DNA of 64,000 nucleotides from Bordetella parapertussis (GTDB lineage Bacteria > Pseudomonadota > Gammaproteobacteria > Burkholderiales > SG8-39): NCBI GenBank assembly GCA_945892985.1, contig CAMDDU010000023.1, positions 2,003-66,002 of the forward strand. The letters are read 5' to 3'. Both the position numbers and the translations under genes were made by a program. Shown here one piece after another: positions 28,935 to 46,186 of the stretch. Each line of letters begins with the position of its first letter. Position 1 is the first letter of the stretch. The notes beneath the pieces were generated by a model. It did no database searches. It was not told the DNA's origin and worked only from the letters and a program-made list of their open reading frames with translations.

Positions 28935-29957
<1,023 letters not shown>

Positions 29958-30149: not shown

Positions 30150-30420
30150 AGGGACGATCACGGTACGGGCAGTCTGATCTGTAGTCCGAGATCGAGAGAT
30201 AGACTAAGGCAGGACTGACGGGATGTACTGCCTTGTATCAATGTCCAGCCTGTCGAGTACATCCGACCCCAGATGTTCGACGGGTGCGCCGGCCCCGCGG
30301 GTGAGTTTCATGAAAAATATTTTTCTTAGACGGCTCGCGCATATCAAGCGCGATGCTCTGCTTGTTCCGATTGAGGCCAAAAATATCGGACTGTCCGCAC
30401 GCTGCTCCCTTCGCGGCCCC
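30150..30420 (-). pseudogene. CaiB/BaiF (family III CoA-transferase) remnant
   Basis: FGLNRNKQSIALDMREP, then after frameshifts VLDRLDI...SPALVYLSISDY...PYRDRP. Confidence 0.75.
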
Positions 30421-30650
30421 GGGGCCCTTAGACTGGCGCCGCGATTTTTTTGATTTCGGCATCAATACTGTGCGTGAAAAATATCCTGGCAAGGTCCGCC
30501 GAAAAGCTTTGCCGTGGCCTCACCCTCGAGTTCGCAGGTTCCTGAAACTTGTTTTTTGTTCAGTTGCTTGGAGTTTATTTTTAAAAGAGTTTTCAGATAA
30601 TCGTCTACGGTCGAAACCGTTTTGATGCTGCAATGCAGAAGGACATTCAC

Positions 30651-30691
30651 TTGACTTGTAAATTAATAGGGATATTGTTAAGTAACAATAT
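30651..30691 (+). promoter_or_regulatory. Sigma70-like promoter overlapped by operator ATATTGTTA-AG-TAACAATAT
   Basis: TTGACT at 30651, TATTGT at 30673, perfect 9-bp inverted repeat at 30672-30691, upstream of the island operon that encodes PadR. Confidence 0.6.
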
Positions 30692-30713
30692 ATAGCGCAC
30701 TGGAGGCTTACCG

Positions 30714-31574
30714 ATGACTGTCAAAATGAATGCCAAGCAAGAGGCCGCGGCGATGGAACCGCCGTCTTGGAAAGAGCGCATGGCCATAGCTTTCGCCCGA
30801 GATATTAACGATGGCGAGCGAATTATTTCTGGCGCGCACACAGAGATTTCTTTTGCGGCGACACTCCTTGCTCAAAAGGTGCACGCGCCAAATATCAAAC
30901 TTCAACTTGGGGGAACATGTTTTCTTGTGAATGTTTCTGACGTGCCAGTTTTTCTCCCCAAAACCTCAACAGAGTATCGGATGATTCGCTGGGCCGAGAT
31001 TGCCTATGATCATATGGAAACATTCATGTACTTCGGCGCGCCTTTGGGGCGCGAGTACTACAAGGGTGGAAGGCCCCAGACAAACAAGTACTTCGTCGCT
31101 GACAAGTTCTTCGCTGGTGGAATTCAGGTGGATGGGAACGGAAATACGAACATGATTGGACTGAAAGGTTCTGGAGATAAAAAGTATAGTTTTCGAGGAC
31201 CAGGTTCTATCGGAATCACTGATATCGTAACAGTAGCCACACCCTATATCTTCGTGACTCACCACGATCGCCGAACCTTGGTCGAAAAGGTTGACTACAT
31301 CTCGATGTTGGGCCCGAAAGGATGGCGTGAGAATAAATATCCGGGCAAGGGTCCTAAGTGGATTATTACGCCGCGGTGCATTTTCACCTTCAACCAGGAC
31401 GGCCATGCTCAACTGGCGGGCGTCTTTGCCGACACGACAGAAGCTTGGGTTCGCGAAAACACTGGATTTGATTTTGAGTTGTCCCCGGATTTCAGCGAAA
31501 TAGTCGAACCCACCTTTGAAGAGCTGTCAATTCTCAGAAACGAAATCGATCGCGACGGCGTGTTGCGTCACTAA
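30714..31574 (+). CDS. Class I CoA-transferase-fold beta subunit (GctB/IpdB-like)
   Basis: MAIAFARDINDGE, HAPN, GGIQVDGNGNTN, LVEKVDYIS and VRENTGF. Confidence 0.88.
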   Translation: MTVKMNAKQEAAAMEPPSWKERMAIAFARDINDGERIISGAHTEISFAATLLAQKVHAPNIKLQLGGTCFLVNVSDVPVFLPKTSTEYRMIRWAEIAYDHMETFMYFGAPLGREYYKGGRPQTNKYFVADKFFAGGIQVDGNGNTNMIGLKGSGDKKYSFRGPGSIGITDIVTVATPYIFVTHHDRRTLVEKVDYISMLGPKGWRENKYPGKGPKWIITPRCIFTFNQDGHAQLAGVFADTTEAWVRENTGFDFELSPDFSEIVEPTFEELSILRNEIDRDGVLRH

Positions 31575-31589
31575 TCAAGGAAGTGCGAA

Positions 31590-32756
31590 ATGGCTAGCGT
31601 GCATATCGCAGGTGTTGGATCGACTTCATTCGGTAGCCATCCGTCACAATCGCTACAGAATCTTGCGGTTATCGCGGCAAAGGCCGCGATTGCGGATTCC
31701 AACATTCCGATCGAACGGATTGGCGCCGTATTTGTCGGCAACTTCGTAGGTGGCATCATGATGGGGCAGGAACTGTTGGGGCCCATCGTTGCCGCTAATC
31801 TAGGTATTTCTTCTGTGCCTGCTTTGAAGATCGAGGCTGCCTGCGCCTCAAGTAGCGCCGCGGTTCACCTCGCCCATGAACTTATCCGCGGTGAAACTCA
31901 CGATGCAATAGTGGTTGTGGGTGTGGAACGCCTTACGGGCGTGCCACGAGAAGCGTTTACCTCGGCAATGACTGCCGCGATTGATCAGCAACAAGAGGGT
32001 ATTCACGGACTGACCTTTCCTGGATTCTGGGGGCTTGTGATGAATCGCCACATGCACCTATACGGGACCACCAGAGCGCAGGTTGGATCCGTTACCGTAA
32101 AAAACAGACAGTTTGGAATCACCAATCCGCTCGCGCAGTTTCGGAAATCCATTACGCTTGATGAAGTAGTCAATTCGGCGCTTATTGCTGATCCAGTTCG
32201 AAAATTCGATTGCTGTCCGTCTACAGACGGTGCAGCTGCCGTTGTGCTCACCTCCGAAGCTCTTGCGCGTCGTTACAGATCACCTTCAATCAAAGTGGCC
32301 GCATCGATACTGGTAAGTGCCCCAGTTCGGATAACGGACTATGCCGAATTAACTATCCATGATGGCACGGTTGAAGCAGCGCGCCGCGCTTATGAGAGAG
32401 CTGGGATAGGGCCAGCAGACGTCGATGTGGCCGAATTGCACGATTGCTTCTCAATTGCGGAGATAGTAGACAGTGAGGATTTGGGGTTCTTCGCGAAGGG
32501 TGATGGTGGTCCTGGCGTAGTAGCCGCGACGTCCGGATCGCCCATGGCTCGTGTGGTGATTAACCCCAGCGGTGGGCTTTTGTCAAAGGGGCACCCCACA
32601 GGTGCCACGGGTTGTGGCCAATTGTACGAAATCGTCATGCAACTTCGTGATATTCACCCGAACCAAGTTCCCGGTGCGCGGATTGGTCTGACACACAACG
32701 GTGGGGGAACTGCGGCAGCCGTAACTGTTCATATCCTCGAGGCAGTTCAGCAATGA
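31590..32756 (+). CDS. Thiolase family protein (SCP2/lipid-transfer-protein type)
   Basis: EAACASSS, DGAAAVV, ELHDCFSIAE and NPSGGLLSKGHPTGATG. Confidence 0.92.
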   Translation: MASVHIAGVGSTSFGSHPSQSLQNLAVIAAKAAIADSNIPIERIGAVFVGNFVGGIMMGQELLGPIVAANLGISSVPALKIEAACASSSAAVHLAHELIRGETHDAIVVVGVERLTGVPREAFTSAMTAAIDQQQEGIHGLTFPGFWGLVMNRHMHLYGTTRAQVGSVTVKNRQFGITNPLAQFRKSITLDEVVNSALIADPVRKFDCCPSTDGAAAVVLTSEALARRYRSPSIKVAASILVSAPVRITDYAELTIHDGTVEAARRAYERAGIGPADVDVAELHDCFSIAEIVDSEDLGFFAKGDGGPGVVAATSGSPMARVVINPSGGLLSKGHPTGATGCGQLYEIVMQLRDIHPNQVPGARIGLTHNGGGTAAAVTVHILEAVQQ

Positions 32757-32989
32757 TTGACAACGGAATGATAGAAGGCAGGGTGGTTAGCCATACCGTG
32801 ATACGCATAGCCGGCAAGCTTCACATGGATCGAGTGCCTTTCGTTTTATTGCTGACAGCGACAAAAGATGGAACGCACTTGCTAGGTCATTTTGATGGGA
32901 TCGAGCCGCCTCCTATCGGAACAGCGGTCACCGCTCACCTAAATACCGGAAGCACCCTCATTTTCACTACAGCCAAGGAGCAGTTATGA
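32753..32989 (+). CDS. Short DUF35-type OB-fold protein (no Zn ribbon)
   Basis: G.VVSHTVI...PFVLLL...G..LLG......IGTAV pattern; ATGA-coupled to the thiolase. Confidence 0.72.
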   Translation: MIDNGMIEGRVVSHTVIRIAGKLHMDRVPFVLLLTATKDGTHLLGHFDGIEPPPIGTAVTAHLNTGSTLIFTTAKEQL

Positions 32990-33918
32990 AACTAGATCCA
33001 ATCACGCGCGACGCTCGTCCCGAGCGCAAGAAGGTACTGATGAGTGAAGAAGAGGCCATCGAGCTGATTCATGACGGCGAAACCGTAATCGTGGGTGGAT
33101 TTGGTACTGTCAATCATCCAATGCCGATTATCCGTGGATTGATACGGAGAAAGGTCAAAAATCTGACGGTAATCGGAGCAGCCACTGCTGGTCTCGAGAT
33201 CGATATGTTAATCGGCGCCGGGTGCGTAAAAAAGGTAATTGCGCCTTATGTCGGAGCCGAACTTTATGCTCCGATCGGACACTGCTATAGACGTGCGGCT
33301 GAACGTGGCGAAATTGAAGTGTACGAAACAACGGAATACCTTCTCTATTCACAACTCGATGCGGCGGCCCGCGGGCTAGGTTTTCTTCCTTGGCGTGGGG
33401 GAGTTGGTACGGATTTACCCAAACTAAACCCCGATTACGTCCCCTTTAATGATCCGATCAACGGTGAGCCCTACCTTGCGGCGCCCGCCCTTCATGCTCA
33501 TTGGGCAATCATCCATGTTGGGCAAGCTGATGAATTTGGAAACGGCCAGCACGGTGGAGCCCGCTTTGGCGATCGCTTGTTATCGAGGGCAGCCGAGCGC
33601 GTAATACTCACCGCGGAGCGGATCGTGCCAAACAGTGAAATTCGTAAAGACCCGTGGGCTACGTCAATCGCATATGCGGACGCTGTTGTCGAGGCTCCTT
33701 ACGGATGCCATCCATACGCCAGTCATGGGTTTTATGTGGAAGATGAAGAGGCCATTCGTGCTTATGTGCAAGCATCGATTAGCTACCGCAAGGATGAGAT
33801 GAAAGAGTGGAATGCGTACCTTGACGAATGGGTAACGGGCCCGAAGTCCCAGATGGAATACCTTGAGAAAATTTCAGCGGGTAGGTTGGCCCAATTGCAA
33901 AACGCGGTTCATGCCTAA
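32986..33918 (+). CDS. Class I CoA-transferase-fold alpha subunit (GctA/IpdA-like)
   Basis: IHDGETVIVGGF, IHVGQADEFGN, ILTAERIV and VVEAPYGCHP. Confidence 0.9.
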   Translation: MKLDPITRDARPERKKVLMSEEEAIELIHDGETVIVGGFGTVNHPMPIIRGLIRRKVKNLTVIGAATAGLEIDMLIGAGCVKKVIAPYVGAELYAPIGHCYRRAAERGEIEVYETTEYLLYSQLDAAARGLGFLPWRGGVGTDLPKLNPDYVPFNDPINGEPYLAAPALHAHWAIIHVGQADEFGNGQHGGARFGDRLLSRAAERVILTAERIVPNSEIRKDPWATSIAYADAVVEAPYGCHPYASHGFYVEDEEAIRAYVQASISYRKDEMKEWNAYLDEWVTGPKSQMEYLEKISAGRLAQLQNAVHA

Positions 33919-34660
33919 GAAACGCGAAGAGCGTCCTGTTCGAAGCGTTGCTCAGGCTTCCAGTAATGGATTACGCGAAGCGCTCTTGGGGCTGTTGGCA
34001 ATTCGGCCTATGTCTGGTTATGACTTAACGCGCTCCTATATCCGAGCGCTGCAGCAAATATGGTATGCCCCGCAGGGGCAGGTATATCCGACCTTACGAA
34101 AAATGCATGCCGAGGGGCTACTTGCGGTGGGGATTGAGGTTCAGCACGATCGGCCAAATCGCAAAATTTATAGCCTCACGGAGAACGGTCGCCAAAATCT
34201 GATCGAATGGCTATCGCATCCGGCCACGCTGCCGCGTATGCACCATGAATTTATCCATAAGCTCTTCCTTTTAAATCAGGTTGACTTAGCGAAGCGGCGT
34301 GAATTAGTAAAATCTTATGCAGAGCGGAGCCACAAGTGGTGTGATGAATTGCGCTGTGTTGAAAAAAAACTTAGCTCCGCACTCAATGGTGAGTACGGAG
34401 AAAGCGCTTGGTATCAACTGCTTGCTCTCCAGCATCTCATTCGAATTGTCGAATGTGATGCGAAATCTGCGCAATTGATCGCGACCCAGCTTGGCAATCG
34501 GTCAAAAGTGAAAGCGGGTAAAAAGTCTGTGCGTAAGCGCGAAGACCGGACTGATACAACTGCATTCGCCGGGTTTTCGTTGTCACCAATTCAGGGTGTG
34601 GTTGAGACTTTGATGGACTGGGATCGATTGCCACAGAGACAAAAGGGCAGTCGGTGTTGA
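33911..34660 (+). CDS. PadR family transcriptional regulator
   Basis: LLGLLAIRPMSGYDL, W.A..GQVYPTL and RPNRKIYSLTENG. Confidence 0.9.
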   Translation: MPKKREERPVRSVAQASSNGLREALLGLLAIRPMSGYDLTRSYIRALQQIWYAPQGQVYPTLRKMHAEGLLAVGIEVQHDRPNRKIYSLTENGRQNLIEWLSHPATLPRMHHEFIHKLFLLNQVDLAKRRELVKSYAERSHKWCDELRCVEKKLSSALNGEYGESAWYQLLALQHLIRIVECDAKSAQLIATQLGNRSKVKAGKKSVRKREDRTDTTAFAGFSLSPIQGVVETLMDWDRLPQRQKGSRC

Positions 34661-34661
34661 T

Positions 34662-36548
34662 ATGAGTACCCAACATCACCGTGCCAGGGCGAGAGAGCTT
34701 TACGGAAAAAGTATCCCGCAGCTCTTTCTTGAGAAGGCAGCCAGCTTCAGCGGTGAAATTGCGTATCGCCACAAAAAAAACGGCATTTATCGCGAAGTGA
34801 CCTGGGGCTCCTATCGGAAGCGCGTAGAAGCATTTTGTCTGGGCTTGATTGATCTTGGGATGGTCCCCGGCGATCGAGTCGCCTTCATGGGGGATACGTA
34901 TCCTGAATACTTTATTGGTGACCTGGCAGTCCTTTGTGGTGGTGGTGTCACTTACGGAATTTATGCAACCTGTTCTGAGATCGAGACTGAGTATCAGGTA
35001 GCTCATGCCGAAGCGAGTTTCTTCGTTGCTGAGAATCAAGAATACGTTGACAAAATCATACATCGCAAGGCGCATTGCCCAGCGCTTAAGTACATAATAG
35101 TTGCAGACATGAGTTCGATGTTTGGATATTCGGACTCGAAAATTATTTCCTTTGCGCAGATTGAGGAACGCGGTTGCGAGATCGCCAAGTACAGCAGTGA
35201 AGTTTTTCTCGATCGCGCATCCGCTGTGCGGGCCGATGCACTGGCTATCTTAGTCTATACGTCGGGTACGACTGGCGCTCCAAAGGCGGCAATGCACAGC
35301 CACCGAGATGTTATCGTGGGGCAGTCGCATCCTTATCTTGAAGGGTTTCCCGAACTCGATCGGGGTAAGCACCGGCTAGTTACGCATCTGCCACTTGCCC
35401 ATCTAGTCGAGCGGTCGATTCCACTCTACTTGCCATTGATCGCCGATCTGGTCGTACATTTTGGCGAGGACGTAGAGAGCCTGCCGACCACGCTTTATGA
35501 GGTAACACCGACATTTTTTCACGCCGTCCCTCGCATCTGGGAAAAAATGGCATGTCGATTCCTGGTCGGAATAGAGCGTAGCACGCCTCTCAAGCGTCTT
35601 ATTTTCGAGGCAGCAATGAAGGTAGGGAAACGCTACATTCATCGCCTTTGGAAGGGCGAGCGTATCCACCTTCATCTCCGACTAAGCTATGCGCTCGCTC
35701 GGCTCTTGGTCTTTCGTCCAATGTTAATGAAGGCGGGTCTCTCGAGTTTGCAGGGAGGGCTTACTGCTGGAGCCCCAATTTCCGGACGTATCCAGGAACT
35801 TTGGCATATTTGGGGGGTTAACCTCCGGAATATCTATGGCATAACCGAAGGCACCGTCATTTCGTGCCAAATAGGTAACTTTCCACGCCCCGGTGACGCA
35901 GGCGCAATAGTCTATCCAAAGGAAGTCCGACTTGCAGCTGACGGTGAAGTTATGGTTCGCGGGAACGGTATATTTTTAGGCTACTGGAAGGATGAGGCGG
36001 CGTCAGCTGCGGCGCATGACGATGGTTGGTTTAAAACTGGAGACATTGCGCGTTGGACCGAGTCATCAGGGGAAAAGGTTCTAACACTCGTCGATCGCAA
36101 GAAGGATCTGATGATTACGAAAGGTGGGAAAAATATCGCCCCAAGTGAAATTGAGTCGCTTCTGAAAACAAGTCATTACATTAGTGAAGCGATTTTGTTT
36201 GCGGATGACCGCAAATATCCGACGGCTTTGATCGAGATCGACTTTGATACCGTTGCGGAGTGGGCGCGAAAGAATTCTGTTCTCTATAGCGGGTACAGTT
36301 GCCTAGCCACTTCTAAGCAGGTAGAGCGGCTAATTGCTGGAGAGATCGATCACGCAAACGGACAACTTGCACGAGTTGAGCAAGTAAAAAAATTCCAAAT
36401 ATTGCCCAAGGAACTTGATCCGGAAGAAGGCGGAACGACGCCCACGCGAAAAATAAAAAGGAAGCAAATCTACGAGATGTTTAGAGACCGCGTGGAGATG
36501 ATGTACGAGGACAAGGAGCAAGAACGGTTACTAGGTGAGGGTACATAA
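34662..36548 (+). CDS. Long-chain acyl-CoA synthetase (AMP-binding)
   Basis: YTSGTTGAPK, YGITE, FKTGDI, GGKNIAP and TPTRKIKR. Confidence 0.92.
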   Translation: MSTQHHRARARELYGKSIPQLFLEKAASFSGEIAYRHKKNGIYREVTWGSYRKRVEAFCLGLIDLGMVPGDRVAFMGDTYPEYFIGDLAVLCGGGVTYGIYATCSEIETEYQVAHAEASFFVAENQEYVDKIIHRKAHCPALKYIIVADMSSMFGYSDSKIISFAQIEERGCEIAKYSSEVFLDRASAVRADALAILVYTSGTTGAPKAAMHSHRDVIVGQSHPYLEGFPELDRGKHRLVTHLPLAHLVERSIPLYLPLIADLVVHFGEDVESLPTTLYEVTPTFFHAVPRIWEKMACRFLVGIERSTPLKRLIFEAAMKVGKRYIHRLWKGERIHLHLRLSYALARLLVFRPMLMKAGLSSLQGGLTAGAPISGRIQELWHIWGVNLRNIYGITEGTVISCQIGNFPRPGDAGAIVYPKEVRLAADGEVMVRGNGIFLGYWKDEAASAAAHDDGWFKTGDIARWTESSGEKVLTLVDRKKDLMITKGGKNIAPSEIESLLKTSHYISEAILFADDRKYPTALIEIDFDTVAEWARKNSVLYSGYSCLATSKQVERLIAGEIDHANGQLARVEQVKKFQILPKELDPEEGGTTPTRKIKRKQIYEMFRDRVEMMYEDKEQERLLGEGT

Positions 36549-36575
36549 ACGAAGTACGACTGAGGAGGATATACA

Positions 36576-37763
36576 ATGAACTTCGAACTAAAACGAAAGG
36601 CCGTCACTGCCGGCATAGTGATGGGTGTGATGTTGTCTTCACCCGTGCGGGCGGATTACCAGATTGGCTTTATGACTGATCTTTCTGGAGCGTTGTCGGA
36701 TGCGTATACGCCGATCTGGGAAGGATTCGACCTCTATGTCAAGGCACTCAATGCCAAGGGAGGCATTGACGGTGAAAAAATTGTCCTTCACACGGAGGAC
36801 GATGGCCTAAATCTCCAAAAGGCAATTTCCCTTACGAAGAAGCTAGCGCTTCAACAGAAGGTTATCGGAATTTTCGGTCTTAGCGTTAGTAGCATACACG
36901 GGCCTGTCTTTGAAGAGTTACGACGACTCAAGGTGCCCGCCGTTACTGCGTTTAGTGCTACTAGCGATAGTCTGGCACCAGCGAAACCCTTCTCTTTTAG
37001 CACCGGTTCACTGTTTCAGATCGCTGGGGAGGCGATTGGCGAACTTACGCCAAAGCTCGGTGTTAAAGGAAAGGTCGTAGGCATGACCATTGATACGGTC
37101 GGCGGTCGAGCAGCCTTGCGACACAATAAACTCGCGGTCGAGCGCGTAGGATATGGCTGGGATGAAGTCGCGTTTCCAATTCAGTCGGTCGATTTTACGC
37201 CGTTCGCACAAGCCGCTGTTGCGAAGAACCCAGCAATCGTTGTCGGCCATTACGGGACAGCGCAGAACCTTGGCATTATCCCGGCCTTGCGGCGAAGTGG
37301 ATTTGCGGGCCCCTATTTAATTGCAAACTACGGTGTAACTGAAACCGCGATTGAGGGGGCAGCTAAAGCAGCGGGGTCTGGGGAGAACATCTACGTCGTA
37401 TCGCGATATGCACCGCCCCAGGAAAATATCCCGGCCGTGGAGCAAATCCGAGCTGCCGCGAAGGCGCATAACTTGAAAAGGAGCCTTACGCAGGTACACG
37501 TTGAGGGATGGGTTCTAGGAATGGTCATGCATGCGGCTGTTACGAAGTGTGGCAAGGGCTGTACTGCGGAGAAGTTAAACGAGACGCTAGAGAATCTGAA
37601 CGTCAATACTGGCGGCCTAACGGGTGGTCCGATCGTATTCACAAAGGACAATCATTATGGGCCGTCATTTTGGCGGCTTTACAAATGGAACAACGCGAGC
37701 CGTAAGCTGGACTCCGTGAGTGAATGGGTCAGGCGTGACGCTATCGAATTTGGTAGTCCGTAA
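36576..37763 (+). CDS. Liv-type ABC substrate-binding protein
   Basis: Signal peptide, IGFMTDLSG and NAKGGIDG. Confidence 0.88.
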   Translation: MNFELKRKAVTAGIVMGVMLSSPVRADYQIGFMTDLSGALSDAYTPIWEGFDLYVKALNAKGGIDGEKIVLHTEDDGLNLQKAISLTKKLALQQKVIGIFGLSVSSIHGPVFEELRRLKVPAVTAFSATSDSLAPAKPFSFSTGSLFQIAGEAIGELTPKLGVKGKVVGMTIDTVGGRAALRHNKLAVERVGYGWDEVAFPIQSVDFTPFAQAAVAKNPAIVVGHYGTAQNLGIIPALRRSGFAGPYLIANYGVTETAIEGAAKAAGSGENIYVVSRYAPPQENIPAVEQIRAAAKAHNLKRSLTQVHVEGWVLGMVMHAAVTKCGKGCTAEKLNETLENLNVNTGGLTGGPIVFTKDNHYGPSFWRLYKWNNASRKLDSVSEWVRRDAIEFGSP

Positions 37764-37772
37764 TACATTACC

Positions 37773-37808
37773 AATAGGTGCGACATCGCGCCGATGATCG
37801 CACCTATT
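37773..37808 (+). terminator. Hairpin after the SBP gene
   Basis: AATAGGTGCGA...TCGCACCTATT inverted repeat. Confidence 0.6.
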
Positions 37809-37843
37809 CTCACCGGATTTTTTAAAATGTTGATAGCGTTTCT

Positions 37844-38713
37844 ATGATGCAATCGATCCTTACGATCGTCGTGCTAACGAGCATCTACGCAATTTTGGCA
37901 GGTGGCATCGTGGTTCTGTATCGGGGGACGCGCGTGCTAAATCTCGCACACGGGGAGCTAGCAATCCTGCTTGGCTATTTATTTGCCACAGCGGGCATGC
38001 AGGTCACGGGTTCGATACTGGGTGGCATGGCCGTAGTCATGGTTTTTAGCGCGATATTTGGAGCGGGTATTTACTGGCTGCTGATGCGACATTTGATTGC
38101 GCAACCCTTTTATGTGGCGATTCTAGCGACCATCGGAATAGCGATTTTAGCGAAGGCGTCAATCGTCCTGCTCTGGGGTGGCCGCGCCGTAAATATCGAG
38201 TTGGGTGCAAATACGGTGCTATACCCGTATTCCACGGGAGGATGGTTTTCTTATCTGGACGCAATCACGATAGCGACTGCAGTTATTTTCTTCATTCTGT
38301 TGTATTACGCGCTCACGTCGACTCGACTCGGAATTCAGTTTCGTGCCGTGGCTGAGAATCCTCTGCTTGCGAGTCAGCGAGGCGTAAACGTGAATACCAT
38401 AATGATGGTGGCATGGATTGTTGCACTATTTGCAGCGTCGATTGCAGGGGTCCTATATGGATCCAGAAGCGTTCTTAGTCTCCAGGCTGTAGTGATTGGA
38501 ATTGGCGGACTAACTGCGGCGTTAGTCGGAGGACTTGATAGTCTTCGCGGCGCAATTGCAGGGGCATTGTTGGTGGCAACGGTTGAGTATGCGACGGTGC
38601 GTTTGATAGACCCAATTTTGAGTCAGGCGATTCCATTTGTCTTGCTATTGACCGTGATGATGTGGCGGCCATGGGGGATTTTCGGAACCCGAGAGGAAAT
38701 CCAGAGGGTGTGA
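37844..38713 (+). CDS. ABC permease (LivH-like)
   Basis: VLNLAHG, LVGGLDS and RPWGIFG. Confidence 0.9.
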   Translation: MMQSILTIVVLTSIYAILAGGIVVLYRGTRVLNLAHGELAILLGYLFATAGMQVTGSILGGMAVVMVFSAIFGAGIYWLLMRHLIAQPFYVAILATIGIAILAKASIVLLWGGRAVNIELGANTVLYPYSTGGWFSYLDAITIATAVIFFILLYYALTSTRLGIQFRAVAENPLLASQRGVNVNTIMMVAWIVALFAASIAGVLYGSRSVLSLQAVVIGIGGLTAALVGGLDSLRGAIAGALLVATVEYATVRLIDPILSQAIPFVLLLTVMMWRPWGIFGTREEIQRV

Positions 38714-38715
38714 TT

Positions 38716-39792
38716 ATGTTTAACGAAGCCCCTAATTTGGTTACCTCACAGCAGCAACGGGGATTTATCCTTAAACGGAGATATCAACGGGTGTTACTCG
38801 CCGTCGTCGTAGTGATTGCGGCAATCTTGCCTTTTTCAATATCGCAATATCATATTCATCTTTTCAATCTTGCGCTCATTGCAAGTATCGGTGCTCTCTC
38901 ACTCAATTTGCTTACGGGCTTGACCGGCCAGGTATCTTTGGGGCATGCCGCTTTTTTGGCTATCGGCGCTTTTTCTGCGGTAATTGTAGAGCGTATGACG
39001 TCGGTGGGCATAACGCTCGCGTTGCCTGTTGCAGCAATTGCAGGGGGGGTGATCGGATTGCTCGTCGGAATTCCAGCAACGCGTTTTCGCGGTATGTATC
39101 TCGCAGTTACGACGCTAGCAATGCATTACGCCACCGTCTTCGTGGCGAAATGGTATCAGATGAAACTTGGCGTAAGTGCCAGTGAGGGGATTGTCATCCC
39201 AAGTCCGCAGATGTTTGGCTACACGCTTTCGGATGACCGACATTGGTATTTTGTATTGGCCCTGATGGTCGGAATAGTAATGTGGCTTTTTCTTAATATT
39301 CTTCGATCACGAACTGGCAGAGCTTGGATAGCGATACGTGATCGGGACATCTCAGCGGAGGCCCTCGGAATCGATGTATTTAAGTTCAAGCTTTCCGCCT
39401 TTGTTATTAGTTCTAGCATCGCTAGCTTTGCGGGTGCTTTGCTGGCCTATTACACAAAGAGCGTTAGTTCTGACACTTTCACATTCGATATAGCCGTCGC
39501 GTATCTTGCAATGATTATCATTGGAGGTATGGGTTCGCCTCTTGGCGCGGTGTTAGGTGCGTTCTTTGTGACGTTTCTTCCCTATATCGTCGAGGCAGCA
39601 TTTGATTTTGTTCCGGTCGCGTGGAAAGGGGGAGGGGCCCTCTTTGGGTACCAGCTTGGATCCGTCGGGCTTTGTATTTTAGTATTTGTTATATTCGAGC
39701 CTCGTGGACTCGTTGAGATTTGGCGACGTGTGGAAACCTACTTCGAACGCTGGCCGTTCAGATATCGAGCCCTTGAACCGAATCAGAAGTGA
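38716..39792 (+). CDS. ABC permease (LivM-like)
   Basis: LNLLTGLTGQVSLGHAAF, RGMYLAVTTLA and IIGGMGS. Confidence 0.9.
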   Translation: MFNEAPNLVTSQQQRGFILKRRYQRVLLAVVVVIAAILPFSISQYHIHLFNLALIASIGALSLNLLTGLTGQVSLGHAAFLAIGAFSAVIVERMTSVGITLALPVAAIAGGVIGLLVGIPATRFRGMYLAVTTLAMHYATVFVAKWYQMKLGVSASEGIVIPSPQMFGYTLSDDRHWYFVLALMVGIVMWLFLNILRSRTGRAWIAIRDRDISAEALGIDVFKFKLSAFVISSSIASFAGALLAYYTKSVSSDTFTFDIAVAYLAMIIIGGMGSPLGAVLGAFFVTFLPYIVEAAFDFVPVAWKGGGALFGYQLGSVGLCILVFVIFEPRGLVEIWRRVETYFERWPFRYRALEPNQK

Positions 39793-39802
39793 AGAGACGA
39801 AA

Positions 39803-40597
39803 TTGGCGAATATTCTTGAGGTATCCCAGTTGGAGGTTGTCTACCATAAGGTAGCGACTGCTGTTCAGGGTGTATCAATATCGGTTCCGGAGCATGCCAT
39901 CGTCGCGATTGTTGGAACGAATGGTGCTGGAAAGACGACGACGTTGCGCGCGATCTCCGGATTGCTCCCGGCAGAAGATGTCGCGATCTCAAATGGAGAC
40001 GTGTTTTTTCGTGGAAGTTCTCTATTGAACATGCCGCCGCACGAGATATCTTCCCGCGGGATAGCAATCGTACCGGAGCGCCATAAGGTGTTCGAGACGC
40101 TAACGGTTGCCGAGAACCTCGCGATGGTTGCACCTAACCAAAACAAGGGCGTGAGCATAGAGGAAATTTTCCAGTATTTCCCGAAATTGAGCGAGCGTCA
40201 CAACCAAATTGCTGGATTTATGAGCGGTGGCGAAAAGCAGATGCTCGCAATAGCAATGGCTCTTCTCAACCACCCGCACTTGCTGTTGATCGATGAGCTT
40301 TCACTGGGTTTGGCGCCTGTCGTTGCTATTGATTTGATGCAGATTCTAAAGAAGTTGAACGAAGATTTAGGTGTGGCCATCTTACTTGTTGAGCAAAACG
40401 CGGTTGCGGCGCTTGAGGTCGCCAGTTATGCCTACGTAATGGAGAACGGACGGATTGTTCACAGCGGGCTGTCTTCGGAGCTTTCTAGTCACGCTGATGT
40501 TCAGGAGTTTTACCTAGGGAGCGGTGCAACTGAAAGTGATCCCAAGAGCTATCGTAACGTCAAGCAATATAGTCGCAAGCGCCGTTGGGGAGGGTAG
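39803..40597 (+). CDS. ABC ATP-binding protein (LivF-like)
   Basis: GTNGAGKTT, MSGGEKQM and DELSLGLAP. TTG start inferred. Confidence 0.9.
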   Translation: MANILEVSQLEVVYHKVATAVQGVSISVPEHAIVAIVGTNGAGKTTTLRAISGLLPAEDVAISNGDVFFRGSSLLNMPPHEISSRGIAIVPERHKVFETLTVAENLAMVAPNQNKGVSIEEIFQYFPKLSERHNQIAGFMSGGEKQMLAIAMALLNHPHLLLIDELSLGLAPVVAIDLMQILKKLNEDLGVAILLVEQNAVAALEVASYAYVMENGRIVHSGLSSELSSHADVQEFYLGSGATESDPKSYRNVKQYSRKRRWGG

Positions 40598-40600
40598 GGG

Positions 40601-41377
40601 ATGCCTCCGCTTCTTCGCGTTGACGAACTTGGGCTGTCCTTTGGGGGGCTCATCGCGATTCATCAATTGAGTTTTTCGCTTGGCCACGGCGAACTCCTTG
40701 CGATCGTCGGGCCGAATGGTGCTGGTAAGACGGCGTTGCTCAATTGCATTAACGGTGTCCATCGCGCGAGTTCGGGGAGTATTCATTTTTGCGAACGCGA
40801 CATTACTGGCGCACCCTTACGAGACATGGCAAGCCTAGGTATTAGTCGTGCATTTCAGCATATCGAGCTCTTTAGTCATCTGACAGTAGTTGAAAATATT
40901 CTCCTTGGTCGGCATTGCCGAATGCAGACAGGGATTCTCGGCAATATGATTTATTGGAAATCGACACGGCAAGAGGAGAGTCGGGAACGCGAACGTTCTG
41001 AAGAAATTATTGAGTACTTTGAATTGAATCATTTTCGCGATACATTGATTGGCAATCTTCCTTATGGCATCCAAAAGCTAGTTGGTGTCGCAAGGGCGAT
41101 TGCATCCGAGCCCAAGTTGTTGCTTTTGGATGAGCCGTCGACTGGGCTCGTTCGTGAAGAAAAGGAGCATCTTGCACGTTTCCTACTGCGTTTACGGAAT
41201 GATCATGCACCGGGAATTATTTGGATAGAACATGATATGCAAATGGTGGCGGATCTTGCTGATCGTGTAATTGTTTTAAGTTACGGACAAAAAATTGCTG
41301 AAGGTTCGCCTCAAGAGATTCGTTGCAATCCCGAAGTTATAAAATCCTATCTAGGGTCCGGGCTGTCATCTAAATAG
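40601..41377 (+). CDS. ABC ATP-binding protein (LivG-like)
   Basis: GPNGAGKT, LPYGIQK, LLLDEP and IEHDM. Confidence 0.9.
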   Translation: MPPLLRVDELGLSFGGLIAIHQLSFSLGHGELLAIVGPNGAGKTALLNCINGVHRASSGSIHFCERDITGAPLRDMASLGISRAFQHIELFSHLTVVENILLGRHCRMQTGILGNMIYWKSTRQEESRERERSEEIIEYFELNHFRDTLIGNLPYGIQKLVGVARAIASEPKLLLLDEPSTGLVREEKEHLARFLLRLRNDHAPGIIWIEHDMQMVADLADRVIVLSYGQKIAEGSPQEIRCNPEVIKSYLGSGLSSK

Positions 41378-41397
41378 TTGAACAACTGCGCTTCGAC

Positions 41398-41421
41398 GTG
41401 CATAGCGCCGGAAGCAGGATT
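41398..41421 (+). repeat. 24-bp direct repeat, right copy
   Basis: Identical to 28439-28462; 21 bp after the last island gene. Confidence 0.9.
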
Positions 41422-41476
41422 CCGGCAGCGGTTACAGGACGTTCATGAGATGCGCTTGGGGCCTGAGCAATTTGGG

Positions 41477-41884
41477 CTAGGCTGCCTTGATTTCTTCCAG
41501 AAGCTCAGGATGCCGGTCCAATACCTTGAGTAGTTTTAGGAGCGCCAATGGTGGCTTCGTTTTGCCATTTTCGTATCGAGAGAACGCATTGACGCCGCCG
41601 CCGAATATTTCTGCGGCCTCGCGCTGATCGAGGTGGAGTTTTTTCCGCACGCCGACAATGAATGACGGATCAACGATCGCGACATTCACTTGCTTGTTGA
41701 ATTCGAGCATCAACGTACTGGTGCGCACAGACTCGCCCCTGTCAAGAACAGCCTCCGCACACGCTGGGCAATAGTCGCCGGTTACCGCCGCAATTGTGGT
41801 TTTTTCGCCCTTGTAGGTGTAGGGCATGTCACGCGTGTCATGCACCAGTTTCGCTGCGCCGCAATTTGGGCATTTCATGGTCAC
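41477..41884 (-). CDS. mqsA: MqsA antitoxin (Zn finger plus HTH)
   Basis: CPNCG...CPAC and LDQREAAEIFGGGVNAFSRYENGK. Confidence 0.93.
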   Translation of the reverse strand: MTMKCPNCGAAKLVHDTRDMPYTYKGEKTTIAAVTGDYCPACAEAVLDRGESVRTSTLMLEFNKQVNVAIVDPSFIVGVRKKLHLDQREAAEIFGGGVNAFSRYENGKTKPPLALLKLLKVLDRHPELLEEIKAA

Positions 41885-42177
41885 AACTCCCTGAACGAAA
41901 CGATGAGAACATCATCGATAACAGTCAACTTCAGCTACACCCCGCCCGCATCTGTGGTCGGCCGATACACGTCCTGCCCAATCCGGGGATCGGCGTGGGT
42001 CGTCATGCTCTTGTAGAAGTCCTTCGGCGTGAGGGCCATGATGACCGCGACAATTTCCTCAAAATTGAACCCCATGGCCGCCGCGCCAACGAGCGCCGAT
42101 TGGGTCGAGCGCACCTTGCCGGCTTCGATTAGCGTCCTAACGACTGCCAGCTTTCAGTGAGGAGTAGCTTTTTCCAC
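41881..42177 (-). pseudogene. mqsR: MqsR toxin with two in-frame stops
   Basis: MEKATPH*KLAVV...DFYKSMTTHAD...QDVYRP...V*LKLTVIDDVLIVSFREL; 99 codons, TGA at codon 8 and TAG at codon 81. Confidence 0.9.
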
Positions 42178-42186
42178 ACGGCATAT

Positions 42187-42201
42187 TAACCTAGTTGGTT
42201 A
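42187..42201. promoter_or_regulatory. MqsA-type operator palindrome TAACC-TAGTT-GGTTA
   Basis: Lies directly upstream of mqsR and resembles the TAACCT...AGGTTA MqsA box. Confidence 0.65.
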
Positions 42202-42259
42202 TATTTGGTAAGTAGGTTAATTTCACGGCACTAAAGGTGGACGTGACGCCCGTCAGAGT

Positions 42260-42283
42260 GTCTCAATCCCTTTGATTTCAGGG
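42260..42283. CRISPR. Isolated, degenerate CRISPR-repeat relic GTCTCAATCCCTTTGATTTCAGGG
   Basis: Has a CCCT..AGGG stem and resembles GTCTCAATCCCTTTG..CAGGG repeats of betaproteobacterial type III loci. About 1 kb from cas2-cas1-cas2. Its first 15 nt recur at 42550-42564. Not an array. Confidence 0.5.
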
Positions 42284-42590
42284 TGGGGAAACGGTGGGTC
42301 GAGCCGGTGGCCGGGGTGGGGGACTTTGAACCGCCGAGCCGATGGCCACGCTGGGGAAATTTGAATTTCGTCCGCCCACCCGCCGGGCCAGACTGCGGCT
42401 GATCTTGCGATCCACGCGAGTGATATGGGCGATCTCGTGCTGACTCTTGTTCGCGGCCAGCAGCGTGAGGATGGTGGTTTGCAAATGCGGCTTCAAGACG
42501 TTCACTCCAAGTTCCCTCGACGATCGAGGGAGAAGCGCCATGCAGCGGCGTCTCAATCCCTTTGCTCCGTCCTGCTGCGTCGTGCATGGC
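42284..42590 (-). mobile_element. IS21-family remnant (istA 5' end)
   Basis: From GTG 42505: VNVLKPHLQTTILTLLAANKSQHEIAHITRVDRK...NFPSVAIG...PPPRPPA (HTH start of IstA). Truncated, with no DDE domain and no istB. Confidence 0.75.
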
Positions 42591-42645
42591 AAGCTTGCCG
42601 TGTGGTGAGATGTGCGGCTACGCTACAAGGGGCCGCGGTTCCGAC

Positions 42646-42981
42646 TCATGCGTGCCGAGCCGCTTCTTTCAATACTTCCGCCGCCCATTGGTTCAGGCTT
42701 TTCCCCGCCGCCTGGGCGGCGATCAGGGCCGAGCCGTGCACTTCGGGCGGAACGCGCAACATCATTTTCCCGCTGGCGGGTTTTTCAGGCTCGATGCCCT
42801 TTGCCTTGCAGTCTTCGATCATAAAATCAATGGCAGCTTTGAAGTCGGCGCGCAACTTTGCGACCGTTTCGCCATGAAAGCCGATGATGGCGCGAACGCC
42901 AAGCACGCGCCCGACAAAAATGTTGTCGCGCTCGTCAAAATCGATGCGGGCCGTATAACCCCTGTATGTCATGCTGCTCAT
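42646..42981 (-). CDS. hicB: HicB antitoxin
   Basis: MTYRGY.A.I.FD, FHGETV and SGKMMLRVPPEVH...GKSLNQW. Confidence 0.93.
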   Translation of the reverse strand: MSSMTYRGYTARIDFDERDNIFVGRVLGVRAIIGFHGETVAKLRADFKAAIDFMIEDCKAKGIEPEKPASGKMMLRVPPEVHGSALIAAQAAGKSLNQWAAEVLKEAARHA

Positions 42982-43232
42982 GGCTTAATCCCCAGTCGCT
43001 GAAGAAATTCGCGTGCACTTTCCACCTGGTACTTCTTCGCCTCCTTGCCCGGGTGCGGTCGGTGCGCATGCCATTCTTCCACGCCGAGGGTAAATTTCAC
43101 CCGCGAGCCTTCGCGTTCATGCAATGTTGCGCCAAGGCCGAGTAACAGGCTTTCGATATCGGCAAAGGCGAGTGTTGCCGGTGTTGGCTTGGTGAATACG
43201 CTGCGAAGTGTTTTGGCATGCTTGCTTTTCAC
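42978..43232 (-). CDS. hicA: HicA toxin
   Basis: KHAKTL, EREGSRV and HRPHPGKEAKKYQV. GTG start; 4-bp overlap with hicB. Confidence 0.92.
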   Translation of the reverse strand: MKSKHAKTLRSVFTKPTPATLAFADIESLLLGLGATLHEREGSRVKFTLGVEEWHAHRPHPGKEAKKYQVESAREFLQRLGIKP

Positions 43233-43240
43233 GTTTCGAA

Positions 43241-43261
43241 TGATAGCAAATAGTGCAATCA
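43241..43261. promoter_or_regulatory. hicAB operator-like inverted repeat TGATAGCA-N5-TGCAATCA
   Basis: One-mismatch inverted repeat just upstream of the hicA start. Confidence 0.5.
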
Positions 43262-43307
43262 TAAGCAATCAGTTTCTGCAATCACGACGTCCCATGTCGG
43301 TCGCGCC

Positions 43308-43601
43308 TTATGCAATGCCCGCCGGCAAGCCCGTCCACTGGATGCCGGCGGGCAGGCTGGCGCGGCCGACGCGGCCCTGAAAACCGCGAACTGGCAGCGG
43401 GTAGCAACGTACGTCATCTTCGCCGTCTTTGATCAGGGACGCCATTTTCTCCAGGCAGCGGTCTTTGTCGGCATCATCACCGACCAGCAAAAACACGCTG
43501 TATTCGAGCGGCGTGGCGTGCTTGCACATTTCGCGATGCACGCGCTGCAACCGGCGCGGGTTGGCGATGTCATAGCCAATGACAAAGGCGCGCTCGCTCA
43601 C
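43308..43601 (-). CDS. cas2: CRISPR-associated Cas2 (second copy)
   Basis: FVIGYDIANPRRLQRV, YSVF and DDVRCY. Confidence 0.93.
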   Translation of the reverse strand: MSERAFVIGYDIANPRRLQRVHREMCKHATPLEYSVFLLVGDDADKDRCLEKMASLIKDGEDDVRCYPLPVRGFQGRVGRASLPAGIQWTGLPAGIA

Positions 43602-43603
43602 GC

Positions 43604-44593
43604 TCAGAATGGCACCGCGTCCGGGGCGGTGGTGGCGGCGTTAACCGTTGTCGCCGCTGCGCCAGTCTGCACGAGCGCCGCGGTCAGGTCCGAGCCGGCT
43701 TCCGAGAGTTTTTTGCGCAGTCGCTCGGCCAGGGGCTCCCACTCGGCATAAAAGCGCGCGCGGCTGGCCTTGCCCAGCCAGCAGCCGCCATCCACCTTGG
43801 AAAAATCATCGGCACGCAGCTTTTCAATGCGAAAAAGATGCTGCATGTGGCGATCGATCTCCACCCGCAGCGGCTCGACCACGTCGCAGGCGAGTGATTC
43901 GCGACCAAAGTCGAGGCTGTGATAAAAACCGATGAACGGGTCAAAGCCGGTTCCGTAAAGGGCAAGCACTGCCTCGGCGCGCAGCTGCGTATAGCCAAGG
44001 GAGAGCGCCGCGTTGACCGGGTCTTTGGGCGGGCGCCGGTTTCGTGTGGAAAACTTCAGCCGTTCGGGCAACAGATCGCCAAACCCCTCAAAGTAAGCCG
44101 CCGCACCCGCACCCTCCAGGCCGCGCAGCGAACCGACCGACATTTGCTGACCGACTGCGGCAATGGCGTTTTCAATCCGGCGCAACGAGTGGTTCAAAAG
44201 GTAGTGCGAACGCGGCTCGTCATCGCGCCGTTCGGCCAGGAAGGCCGCTTGCGAGCGCAGCTTGGCTTCAACAACACTGTGTGCAAAACGCAGACAAAAG
44301 CCCGTGTCTTGCGACAGCCGGTACTGCTCAACCCGTCGTGCCGCGTCGTTGTGCGGCCGGCCAAGCAGCAGGGTCGGTTCCGCTTTGCGGCCAGAGAGCA
44401 CCACCACGCCAATGCTGCGTTCGCCGAGCCTGCCAAGCAGTGAAGATAACAGCGTCACATCGCCACGCAGGAAGACGCGCGACAAAGGCGCGAGCGGAAC
44501 CGTGCCGACGCGTTTGCCATTCTCGTAGAACATCAGGGCCTCGCCGTCGGCCTTTAGCGTTACCCCGCGTCTATCCACATACAAACTGGTCAT
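43604..44593 (-). CDS. cas1: CRISPR-associated integrase Cas1
   Basis: LRGLEG..A..YF, RNRRPPKDPVNAALSLGY, GFDPFIGFYH and SLACDVVEPLR; catalytic E/H/D-E present. Confidence 0.96.
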   Translation of the reverse strand: MTSLYVDRRGVTLKADGEALMFYENGKRVGTVPLAPLSRVFLRGDVTLLSSLLGRLGERSIGVVVLSGRKAEPTLLLGRPHNDAARRVEQYRLSQDTGFCLRFAHSVVEAKLRSQAAFLAERRDDEPRSHYLLNHSLRRIENAIAAVGQQMSVGSLRGLEGAGAAAYFEGFGDLLPERLKFSTRNRRPPKDPVNAALSLGYTQLRAEAVLALYGTGFDPFIGFYHSLDFGRESLACDVVEPLRVEIDRHMQHLFRIEKLRADDFSKVDGGCWLGKASRARFYAEWEPLAERLRKKLSEAGSDLTAALVQTGAAATTVNAATTAPDAVPF

Positions 44594-44608
44594 TGCGCTA
44601 TCCGTTCA

Positions 44609-44896
44609 TCAGACGATCGTGAATACGTTGGTCACCGGCTCGGTCGCACGCCCCAGCCCCTCGCTTTTCATGCGCGGGTCAAGCTGGAATATATGCGCCC
44701 GGTCTTCCGTGGGCTCAAGCAGGCGATCGAGCGTCTGCCGTACTTCGTGCAACTCCGCTGGCGTCAGCCAGCACTCAAAGAATGATTTTTGCCCGCCCAC
44801 CCGATAGCCGAGCAAATATTTGTGTACCCGATAGAGTCGCCTCGGGTTGCAGATGTCGTAGCACACCAAGAAAAGGGTTCTCGCTGCATCACTCAT
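44609..44896 (-). CDS. cas2: CRISPR-associated Cas2
   Basis: FLVCYDICNPRRL, QKSFFEC and EDR. Confidence 0.93.
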   Translation of the reverse strand: MSDAARTLFLVCYDICNPRRLYRVHKYLLGYRVGGQKSFFECWLTPAELHEVRQTLDRLLEPTEDRAHIFQLDPRMKSEGLGRATEPVTNVFTIV

Positions 44897-45276
44897 GCAT
44901 CAACGATAGATTGGACACGGTTATTGCGCCAGACTGGCAAGCTTGTCGTGGAGCAATGGTTTGATGCGGTTGCACGGTACCGGCACATACGGAGCGCTCT
45001 GAACTGCCAGGGGATGTGCGGATCGGCAAAGTACACCTTTACGAAACAGGTACAAGATCAGGCGGAGCTGGGGCGGGACATGTCCCGTATGGTCAAAAAA
45101 CCGGAAGCTACTGAAGCTGCGGTCGTTTTGGGCTGCGAGGGCTCTCAGGGGCAGGAGGGAATGCGCGGAGGCAAGATTTGCGGAGTTTTAGGAAATGTCG
45201 CGCATGGAACGCATACAGCTTTGCCCGGACTCGAACCCGGGACCTGCGGATGAACAGAACAGGTCCGTGCTGTCCT

Positions 45277-45762
45277 TCAGTTGCGCAGCGCCGCGCGCAG
45301 CCGCCGCACCAGTTCGGCCGGCTCCATGGCGACATCCAGTTCGATGGCCTCAGCCGGTGTTTCAAGAATGGCGAACTGTGAGTCGAGCAGCGCCGGGTTC
45401 ATGTAGTGGCCCTGGCGCGGCAGCAGGCGGCTGCGGATTAGCGCCTTGTCGCCGGCAAGAAAGGCAAAACGCAGGCTGGGGCATCGCGCCGATAAGCGGT
45501 CGCGGTAGGCTTGCTTGAGTGCGGAGCAGGCCAGTACCACGCTCTTGCCCTTTGTCTCGTGCTCGGCGAGCAGCGTACCTAGCCGCTCCAGCCACGGCCC
45601 GCGGTCTTGGTCGTTGAGCGCTTCGCCGCGACGCATTTTCTCGACATTCTGCGGCGGATGAAAATCATCGGCGTCGAAAAAATGCGAGCCGCAGGCGCCG
45701 GCCAGCATTGCGCCCACCGTGGTCTTGCCGCAGCCGGTGACGCCCATCACCACAACAATCAT
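45277..45762 (-). CDS. gntK: Gluconokinase
   Basis: MGVTGCGKTT, DADDFHP..N..KM, ACSALK and LLDSQF..LE. Confidence 0.92.
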   Translation of the reverse strand: MIVVVMGVTGCGKTTVGAMLAGACGSHFFDADDFHPPQNVEKMRRGEALNDQDRGPWLERLGTLLAEHETKGKSVVLACSALKQAYRDRLSARCPSLRFAFLAGDKALIRSRLLPRQGHYMNPALLDSQFAILETPAEAIELDVAMEPAELVRRLRAALRN

Positions 45763-45809
45763 CGCCCGCTTCCCCAATCATGGCCCGCCGTCATTACAAC
45801 AGAACGGCG

Positions 45810-46186
45810 GCCGGACGTGAGCGGCTCAGTTGGTCTGCGCCGGTTCCGGCGCGGACCGGTTTTTATGCGAGCGCGGCTTGCGCCTCGATATCAAGATGGA
45901 ACTGGGGAGCAACGAGGCGATCAAGCAGGCCGTGGCCGGCGGACTGGGCCTGTCCTTTCTTTCCCTGCACGCGCTGGGCCCGGATGCCGCGCCGCGTTCG
46001 CTGGTGGCTTTGAATGTGGAAGCTCTTCCCATACGCCGGCACTGGTATATCGTCTATCCGGCCGGCAAGCGCCTTTCCGTCGTCGCGCAGGCGTTTTTCG
46101 CCCACCTCAAAGCCGAGGGCAGTCAGATCAAGTTGCCGTCCCTGGCGTGGTTTTCACCCCGCGGTGGCACGGTGCAGCGCGCGTAG
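45810..46186 (+). pseudogene. C-terminal fragment of a CbbR/CysL-like LysR regulator
   Basis: MELGSNEAIKQAVAGGLGLS.LS.H and R.WYIV...GKRLS.VAQAF; no N-terminal HTH. Confidence 0.8.

Follow-up and report, generated by a model that had tools for sequence, protein, structure and literature searches.

We analysed a 64,000-nt stretch of contig C23 (hereafter the window) from a draft genome deposited as Bordetella parapertussis (GenBank GCA_945892985.1; G000). In this stretch three adaptation genes of a CRISPR system, arranged cas2a-cas1-cas2b, run into a hicAB toxin–antitoxin (TA) pair. Coordinates are window positions unless another contig or locus is named. All five genes lie on the minus strand and exceed the curated Pfam cut-offs (Table 1). 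Only 15 nt separate cas2a from cas1 and 2 nt separate cas1 from cas2b, and about 75 nt lie between the cas2b stop codon and the likely GTG start of hicA. The latter overlaps hicB by 4 nt, placing HicA and HicB domains in adjoining genes as is usual for the HicAB architecture.

Cas1 retains all four catalytic residues (E160, H225, D237 and E240), the columns they occupy being conserved in 90% or more of 79 relatives, and the Y-D-I motif is present in both Cas2a and Cas2b. An earlier sequence-only reading of this DNA had described three tightly spaced intact genes with these residues and motifs, followed closely on the same strand by hicA-hicB. The open reading frames (ORFs), the Pfam matches and the conserved columns agree with that description. 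Among columns conserved in at least 90% of relatives, the proteins of G000 have changed at 2 of 55 positions in Cas1, 0 of 12 in Cas2a and 0 of 14 in Cas2b. The relatives show a median of one changed Cas1 column and a maximum of six, with two or more in 27 of the 79. When compared with NCBIfam, Cas1 was matched as generic Cas1 and fell under every subtype-specific cut-off. A promoter/terminator scan of 42100-45400 returned 0 promoter-like sites and no usable output.

Table 1. Features of the cas module and of the island around it (window positions)
Feature	Position	Strand	Description
cas2a	44609-44896	-	95 aa; PF09827, E 3.6e-14; 'GGQKS'-type Cas2 paralogue that precedes cas1 in the clade
cas1	43604-44593	-	329 aa; PF01867, E 1.7e-70; integrase family
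cas2b	43308-43601	-	97 aa; PF09827, E 4.8e-10; second, divergent Cas2 paralogue that follows cas1 in the clade
Homologous 59 nt upstream of cas2a	44897-44955	-	Still alignable to L026
CRISPR repeat remnant A	42550-42577	-	Degenerate; 3' 15-17 nt exact, gaps in the 5' half
IS21-family istA fragment	42278-42541	-	First ~74-88 codons, without an IS end; between both remnants
CRISPR repeat remnant B	42260-42286	-	3' 27 nt of the repeat, 5' end truncated
hicA toxin gene	42978-43232	-	Likely GTG start at 43232, longest ORF to 43268; PF07927, E 5.2e-9
hicB antitoxin gene	42646-42981	-	PF05534, E 6.3e-20
Insertion relative to same-genus G003	28396-45285		16.9 kb; low-GC cluster, mqsRA, array remnant, hicAB, cas module
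mqsR toxin pseudogene	41881-42177	-	In-frame TGA at codon 8, TAG at codon 81; PF15723, E 1.6e-16 on the open middle
mqsA antitoxin gene	41477-41884	-	Intact; PF15731, E 1.6e-62
tRNA 3'-end-like fragment (T-arm)	45215-45245	-	Right edge of the island, directly after gntK

The module and its type III-A relatives

We placed the module in context using 80 loci of the same Cas1 clade, one genome per species, in which locus genes were marked by phmmer (E <= 1e-4) with proteins of G000, G037, G001, G002 and G018 as queries. A cas2a-type gene stands directly before cas1 in 71 of the 80 loci, a cas2b-type gene follows cas1 in 78, and both are present in 70; L029, L076 and L101 also list cas2a and were missed only through the adjacency rule. 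Arrays were found in 53 of 80 loci, cas6 or Csm genes in 28 of 80, and csx16, card1 or csm6 in 45 of 80. Where at least 5 kb of sequence was available on both sides of the module (n = 24), an array was present in 24 of 24 loci and an array together with type III genes in 21. In each of the 14 loci with no array, effector or accessory gene, the sequence reached less than 5 kb to one side or both. The gene after cas2b varies among relatives and may be csx16, csm6, an array or nothing.

The relative in G037, a genome of the same order but another family, has a Cas1 79% identical to that of G000. Its contig carries an array of at least 13 repeats followed by cas2a-cas1-cas2b-csx16-card1-csm6, where card1 encodes a Card1-type CARF nuclease, and csm1-csm5 sit on a second contig apart from the adaptation module. 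The combination of array, adaptation module, csx16/card1/csm6 and csm1-csm5 identifies this as a type III-A system. A corresponding order, csm1-csm5-cas6-csx16-csm6-csx1-cas2-cas1-cas2, is printed for Gallibacterium anatis in the available part of PMC3554606. Together these data uphold the earlier statement that cas2-cas1-cas2 occurs in proteobacterial type III loci. G000 shares with such loci the gene order, the two distinct Cas2 genes around one Cas1, a Cas1 nested in the clade and, as described below, remnants of the clade's repeat type. It differs from them in that its assembly has no array, Csm effector, Cas6 or cyclic-oligoadenylate accessory genes, and in that hicAB occupies the place where relatives have csx16, csm6 or an array.

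In a quick maximum-likelihood tree of Cas1, G000 was sister to L026 with a Shimodaira–Hasegawa-like approximate likelihood-ratio test (SH-aLRT) value of 96, inside a 28-member clade (SH-aLRT 99). Both belong to a six-member group that also includes a metagenome-assembled genome of Candidatus Accumulibacter. The module Cas1 lies far from the I-C and I-G Cas1 proteins of its own genome, both of which are long branches in this quick search. The same-genus genomes G001 and G002 carry another Cas1 lineage of the clade, with 44-45% identity to G000 and accompanied by an extra Cas1-like gene, which indicates that the module of G000 was acquired horizontally. Homology to the relatives is confined to the three genes, spanning 43312-44897 against G037 and 43305-44955 against L026, and Cas2a is 88% identical to its L026 orthologue. 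The sequence-only reading had named as evidence against itself the signs of a recent deletion relic: a complete type III locus at the same site in close relatives, with hicAB absent or randomly placed, and relaxed selection on cas1. This counter-case is only half borne out. Complete type III-A loci without hicAB do exist in relatives of the module, but they occupy other chromosomal sites, and relaxed selection on cas1 is not seen.

Selection was evaluated from pairwise distances by the method of Nei and Gojobori (NG86) and from three-taxon branch estimates. Against L026 the ratio of nonsynonymous to synonymous divergence (dN/dS) was 0.076 over 479 codons (cas2a 0.070, cas1 0.079, cas2b 0.072), with dS of about 1. 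The three-taxon distance estimate gave dN of 0.044-0.050 and dS of 0.69-0.71 on the end branch of G000, and dN of 0.027-0.034 and dS of 0.31-0.34 on that of L026, so that the ratio in G000 is no higher; with L028 as outgroup dS was not computable. Given that dS is close to 1 and so near saturation, these branch figures are rough. Judged on these comparisons the three genes would appear free of decay, and such tests average over a long branch and are blind to recent loss. The scars around the module are deletions and insertions, which can be recent.

The double-Cas2 adaptation module is widespread in type III-A systems (70 or more of 80 loci), and the only test of such an arrangement that we found in the literature concerns one RT-Cas1 (reverse transcriptase-Cas1) system. 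A further gene of about 260-330 aa lies between cas1 and cas2b in 45 of the 80 loci, for example at L021:747-1556 and L009:578-1579 (both minus strand). Similarity of its product to Cas1 is limited to the N-terminal domain (Pfam positions 9-79 of 283; Cas1 residues 3-71 by hhalign, E 7e-7), with the catalytic Cas1 domain undetectable, and the sub-clade of G000 has no such gene. The double Cas2 and this Cas1-N-terminal protein, the latter in over half of the loci, bear on how type III systems build their integrase.

Array remnants and missing partners

The relatives have a cognate repeat of the type GTCAG...ATTGAGAC. In the whole assembly of G000 this repeat has two significant places, both just past hicB and both on the cas strand, and it was found nowhere else. 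Apart from a single 1-nt gap, remnant B is identical to positions 9-36 of the L027 repeat at 27 of 27 aligned positions, and it agrees at 24 of 24 with the L026 repeat. Its score was 50, whereas none of 300 shuffles exceeded 31, and it is the best match in the assembly (genome-wide E 8.7e-5). Remnant A is identical at 16 of 17 positions to positions 20-36 of the L027 repeat; against the G037 repeat its local score of 33 is borderline alone, the shuffle maximum being 31, and its 15-mer has a genome-wide blastn E of 0.084. The sequence-only reading had reported no array. This holds in that no array of three or more repeats, and hence no cognate adjoining array, lies near the module, but it overlooked these two cognate remnants.

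Between the remnants lies a stump of an istA gene from the insertion sequence (IS) family IS21. Its translation has up to 75% identity, over 99% of a 74-aa query, to PF00665 proteins of about 525-533 aa, some of which are named IS21 family transposase, and blastn to annotated istA genes covers 42301-42523. The stump is single-copy in the assembly. We considered whether the 263 nt between the remnants might instead be an oversized spacer integrated by the module's own Cas1-Cas2. In keeping with such an origin, the stump has no IS end, begins at most 8-26 nt past remnant A and runs to remnant B. Integration, however, duplicates a whole repeat, whereas remnant B has lost its 5' end and remnant A is gapped, and the arrays of relatives have an ordinary period of about 70 nt. 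We therefore regard an oversized spacer as extremely improbable and the stretch as a probable IS scar.

On the other side of the module, blastn homology to L026 ends at 44955, which corresponds to L026 position 84, right after the L026 repeat at 59-82. That repeat is the last one of the upstream array in L026. In G000 nothing repeat-like above shuffles was found upstream of 44955. Downstream, homology to L026 ends 3 nt past the cas2b stop codon, and neither the interval from hicB to remnant A nor the DNA upstream of 44955 showed leader-like homology to the relatives. We also observed that RNA-library contigs over hicB from runs X16 and X17 both end at 42579-42583, at remnant A, where one DNA contig continues, and that an X16 RNA-library contig spans 42286-42537, nearly the whole stretch between the remnants, with 5 differing letters. 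This hints weakly that RNAs end at the repeats, but assembly breaks or another strain would explain it equally well.

The effector genes of a type III system were sought throughout the assembly, which comprises 106 contigs and is 94.65% complete. No match to RAMP, Cmr2, Csm1 or Cas6 families was found on any contig, and tblastn with the csm, csx16, card1 and csm6 proteins of G037 gave none either, leaving the assembly without a Cas10/Csm1 or Csm2-5 gene. For Cas6, PF10040 gave no match and the G018 Cas6 none via family search; these families are diverse, and a distant Cas6 could escape. Within the window, tblastn with the genome's own I-C and I-G proteins found no cas3, cas4, cas5, cas7 or cas8, and there is no reverse transcriptase, the sole match in the assembly being on contig C29. 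The earlier report of neither effector genes nor reverse transcriptase in the 64 kb is thereby confirmed.

It could be that the module is not orphaned at all, and that its Csm effector, cas6 and cognate array lie in the 5% or so of the genome missing from the assembly. Arrays and repeated loci often break assemblies, this one is in 106 contigs and 94.65% complete, and the effector of G037 sits on a different contig from its adaptation module. Yet both flanks of the G000 module are contiguous with non-CRISPR DNA, the adjoining arrays are visibly destroyed, and no type III gene or repeat fragment was found on any of the 106 contigs beyond the two remnants by hicB. On this evidence we hold a complete but unassembled system to be improbable.

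The genome does contain two complete type I systems. A type I-G locus (C51:924-11394) has cas7g, csb2, cas3g, a cas3-extension, a cas4/cas1 fusion and cas2 and is accompanied by an array of 22 or more repeats, and a type I-C locus (C86:979-9662) has cas3, cas5c, cas8c, cas7c, cas4, cas1c and cas2, with an array that reaches the contig end. Beyond the I-G array we noted an SbcD-like gene and an ORF of 1173 aa without any NCBIfam match. These loci raise the question of whether the module is active in trans, with Cas1-Cas2a/Cas2b adding spacers to the resident I-C or I-G arrays. Its genes are intact with low dN/dS, two arrays are available elsewhere in the genome, all three repeat types end in ATTGA(A/G)(A/G)C, and use of a remote cas1-cas2 is discussed in the section of PMC5294841 available to us. 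Both type I loci, however, come with a cas1-cas2 of their own and with cas4 or a cas4-cas1 fusion; apart from that 3' end, the I-C, I-G and relic repeats are unrelated in sequence; and the module has its own array beside it in every one of the well-flanked relatives. Activity in trans is accordingly, in our judgement, unlikely.

These data allow us to propose that the module is probably the orphaned remnant of a type III-A adaptation module, lying in a mosaic island with many deletion and insertion scars, next to remnants of its array and an unrelated TA neighbour. In the relatives, Cas1 and two Cas2 paralogues would write spacers into the adjoining array, and that array would serve a Csm effector, Cas6 and the cyclic-oligoadenylate accessory nucleases Csx16, Card1 and Csm6. 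In G000 the upstream array would have been cut off exactly at its last repeat, the downstream array would have been reduced to two degenerate repeats around the IS21 transposase stump, and hicAB would have inserted between cas2b and what is left of the array. By their residues, the three proteins still look able to form a Cas1-Cas2a/Cas2b integrase. With no cognate leader-repeat to act on, they are most likely idle for immunity now, and the module as a whole is presumably idle at present. We infer loss in place rather than transfer of part of a locus, and a remnant and a partially transferred module both fit.

Several observations weigh against this proposal. With a completeness of 94.65% in 106 contigs, the assembly could be missing a type III locus or an array; the 3' ATTGA(A/G)(A/G)C common to the I-C, I-G and relic repeats is compatible with cross-use. 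The three genes are intact, with purifying-looking dN/dS and no excess change at conserved sites. The break points fall at the edges of the module (59 nt upstream, 3 nt downstream), which random deletions would rarely produce. The neat edges would fit selection on the cassette, and would also fit transfer as a unit or the known modular shuffling of adaptation modules. A further explanation is that selection has kept the integrase as a precise three-gene cassette after the loss of its type III-A partner, where it would feed the I-C/I-G arrays or serve non-immune DNA integration; we consider this doubtful, and an orphaned remnant remains our preferred explanation.

Zhang and Ye (2017, PMC5294841) surveyed isolated or orphan cas loci, which are thus an established category, and the module of G000 resembles them as a cas locus with no companion array. 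As far as the available text of that survey goes, its loci comprised at least three cas genes including effector types; in G000 there are adaptation genes only and the scars of the array are visible. A cas1 away from working CRISPR-Cas is likewise a property of Cas1-solo genes and casposons (PMC4046053, PMC9939771). Casposon cas1 stands beside a family B polymerase within terminal inverted repeats, whereas cas1 of G000 is flanked by two cas2 genes and belongs to a type III-A clade. We rejected a casposon or Cas1-solo identity: Cas1 is of the CRISPR clade, and the 10 scanned island ORFs are metabolic or transport genes with no polymerase, no search having been aimed at terminal inverted repeats. 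Tn7-like and reverse transcriptase-linked readings were also rejected, with no transposition genes among the scanned island ORFs and no reverse transcriptase in the window. As it stands, the locus is a textbook picture of CRISPR-Cas decay inside variable islands. For annotation the case is useful, since a working system should not be called from these three genes.

The hicAB neighbour and the two Cas2 paralogues

The sequence-only reading had offered, as one of several alternatives, that the module is held in place by HicAB addiction, and had asked whether hicAB is recurrently linked to close Cas1 homologues. Neither addiction nor a functional or recurrent link was supported. Relatives of the G000 HicA or HicB were found by phmmer in 0 of the 80 related cas loci, a search that finds relatives of these two proteins and not every HicAB family. 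From the other side, this HicB is patchily spread: homologues turned up in 48 of 300 other genomes from the order and in none of 7 from the same family. Of their 29 loci, 28 were counted and one from an unpublished genome was left out; a hicA partner was seen in 16 of the 28, and a Cas1, Cas2 or type III gene lay within 1.5 kb in 0 of the 28. Addiction would in any case not achieve what was proposed, since a TA pair penalises only deletions that remove the pair itself, and so cannot shield its three neighbours against point mutation or the loss of short stretches. We read hicAB as an independently mobile TA cassette and a chance neighbour of the cas genes.

Near-identical RNA-library contigs cover hicA and hicB in three runs (X15-X17), with hicA represented in X15 and X17, which records their presence in the libraries and is not a transcript map. 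The same contigs give no cover over 43311-44927, where the cas genes lie; their depth is low, so this gap says nothing on cas transcription. Other TA-looking pairs were seen by eye amid cas genes of related loci: a Phd/VapC-like (VapBC-like) pair amid type III-A cas genes in G002 (L009:2850-3607, plus strand) and a nucleotidyltransferase/HEPN-like pair in G018 (L022:2386-3815, minus strand). Such pairs would fit a general settling of TA genes in defence loci, not a specific partnership.

A different possibility is that cas2a-cas1-cas2b works together with hicAB as a new functional unit, either as a repurposed integrase or as a cassette stabilised by the TA pair, perhaps using the degenerate repeats as CreTA or Cas13a-HicAB do. 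The genes are on the same strand about 75 nt apart, degenerate repeats follow hicB, and coupling of HicAB to CRISPR exists for type VI-A in the part of PMC13448076 available. Indeed, both CCTA (Cas13a-HicAB, PMC13448076) and CreTA (PMC9458426) likewise place TA genes beside cas genes and CRISPR repeats. In the accessible text of those reports, however, the two systems depend on a Cas13a or Cascade effector and recur across genomes, neither of which applies to G000: the linkage does not recur among the 80 cas or 28 HicB loci, and there is no cognate effector, cas13 not having been searched for. There is also no effector or Cas6 to use or process a repeat RNA, and the TA-looking genes of related loci noted above are of other types and at other positions. 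A new unit is thus very improbable.

Profile comparison of the two Cas2 families gave 27% identity (E 2.3e-23), and each has its own conserved residues, so that Cas1 of G000 is flanked by two distinct Cas2 proteins as in its clade. A complex prediction for Cas2a with Cas2b scored 0.70, against 0.01 for the best of 3 controls, and three runs had 96% or more of their contacts in common, with a partner predicted local distance difference test (pLDDT) of at least 79. In calibration, 58 of the 80 solved complexes reached the mark, as did 2 of the 110 mismatched pairs. Structures of Cas2 homodimers have been solved, so the pass may reflect no more than likeness, and the predicted model does not distinguish between a heterodimer and two homodimers.

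The earlier suggestion that the two divergent Cas2 proteins could form a heterodimer fits both this result and the literature. In Vibrio vulnificus, Cas2A and Cas2B are both required for spacer acquisition and a heterodimer was proposed, according to the part of PMC6821258 available; the idea is therefore already published for the Vibrio system. The V. vulnificus YJ016 operon (type III-D) resembles the module in having two different Cas2 proteins in one adaptation operon. As described in the same portion of that report, its Cas1 carries a reverse transcriptase fusion and is followed by both cas2 genes, whereas G000 has no such fusion and its cas2 genes flank cas1.

The surrounding island

The module lies near the right end of a segment that is an insertion in G000, as its flanks (the left flank at about 28390 and gntK at 45286) are about 14 nt apart in G003. 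GC content is 50-53% over 30-42 kb and about 60% elsewhere in the window. The left part of the island (28396-41400, about 50% GC) is absent from G003 and encodes a TRAP-type solute-binding protein, two CoA-transferase-like proteins, a thiolase, PadR, an acyl-CoA synthetase and a Liv-type ABC transporter. The layout around the module is not an assembly artefact: contigs from an independent DNA run, X6, bridge hicA-cas2b-cas1 (42980-43768) and cas1-cas2a-gntK (44272-45785) with 2 and 5 differing letters, which rules out a chimera. One X6 contig joint that skips 42329-42474 has a side of 26 letters and is unreliable, and the small shares of words found in runs X8-X20 have no bearing on habitat.

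The claim that neighbouring genes are decayed proved correct, with two stops in mqsR, only the first ~74 codons of istA and a LysR regulator of which only the C-terminal 118 aa are left. Upstream of mqsR (region 41881-42240) an AACCTA...TAGGTT palindrome was seen by eye. We take palindromes of this kind to be MqsA operators.

At the right edge, homology to G002 (94% identical flank) breaks inside the tRNA-like fragment, at 45224. ARAGORN found no tRNA in the window, and no full tRNA gene that would explain this fragment was found in G002 or G003 either. In G002 (L112:3985-4255) the fragment runs to a CCA end, followed by the apparent start of a transposase gene at the contig end, and G003 has neither. 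The interval from gntK to the next conserved gene is 0.39 kb in G000 (45763-46157), holding the LysR fragment only, and about 2.8 kb in G002 (L112:665-3472). This interval is a second deletion scar on the right flank of the island.

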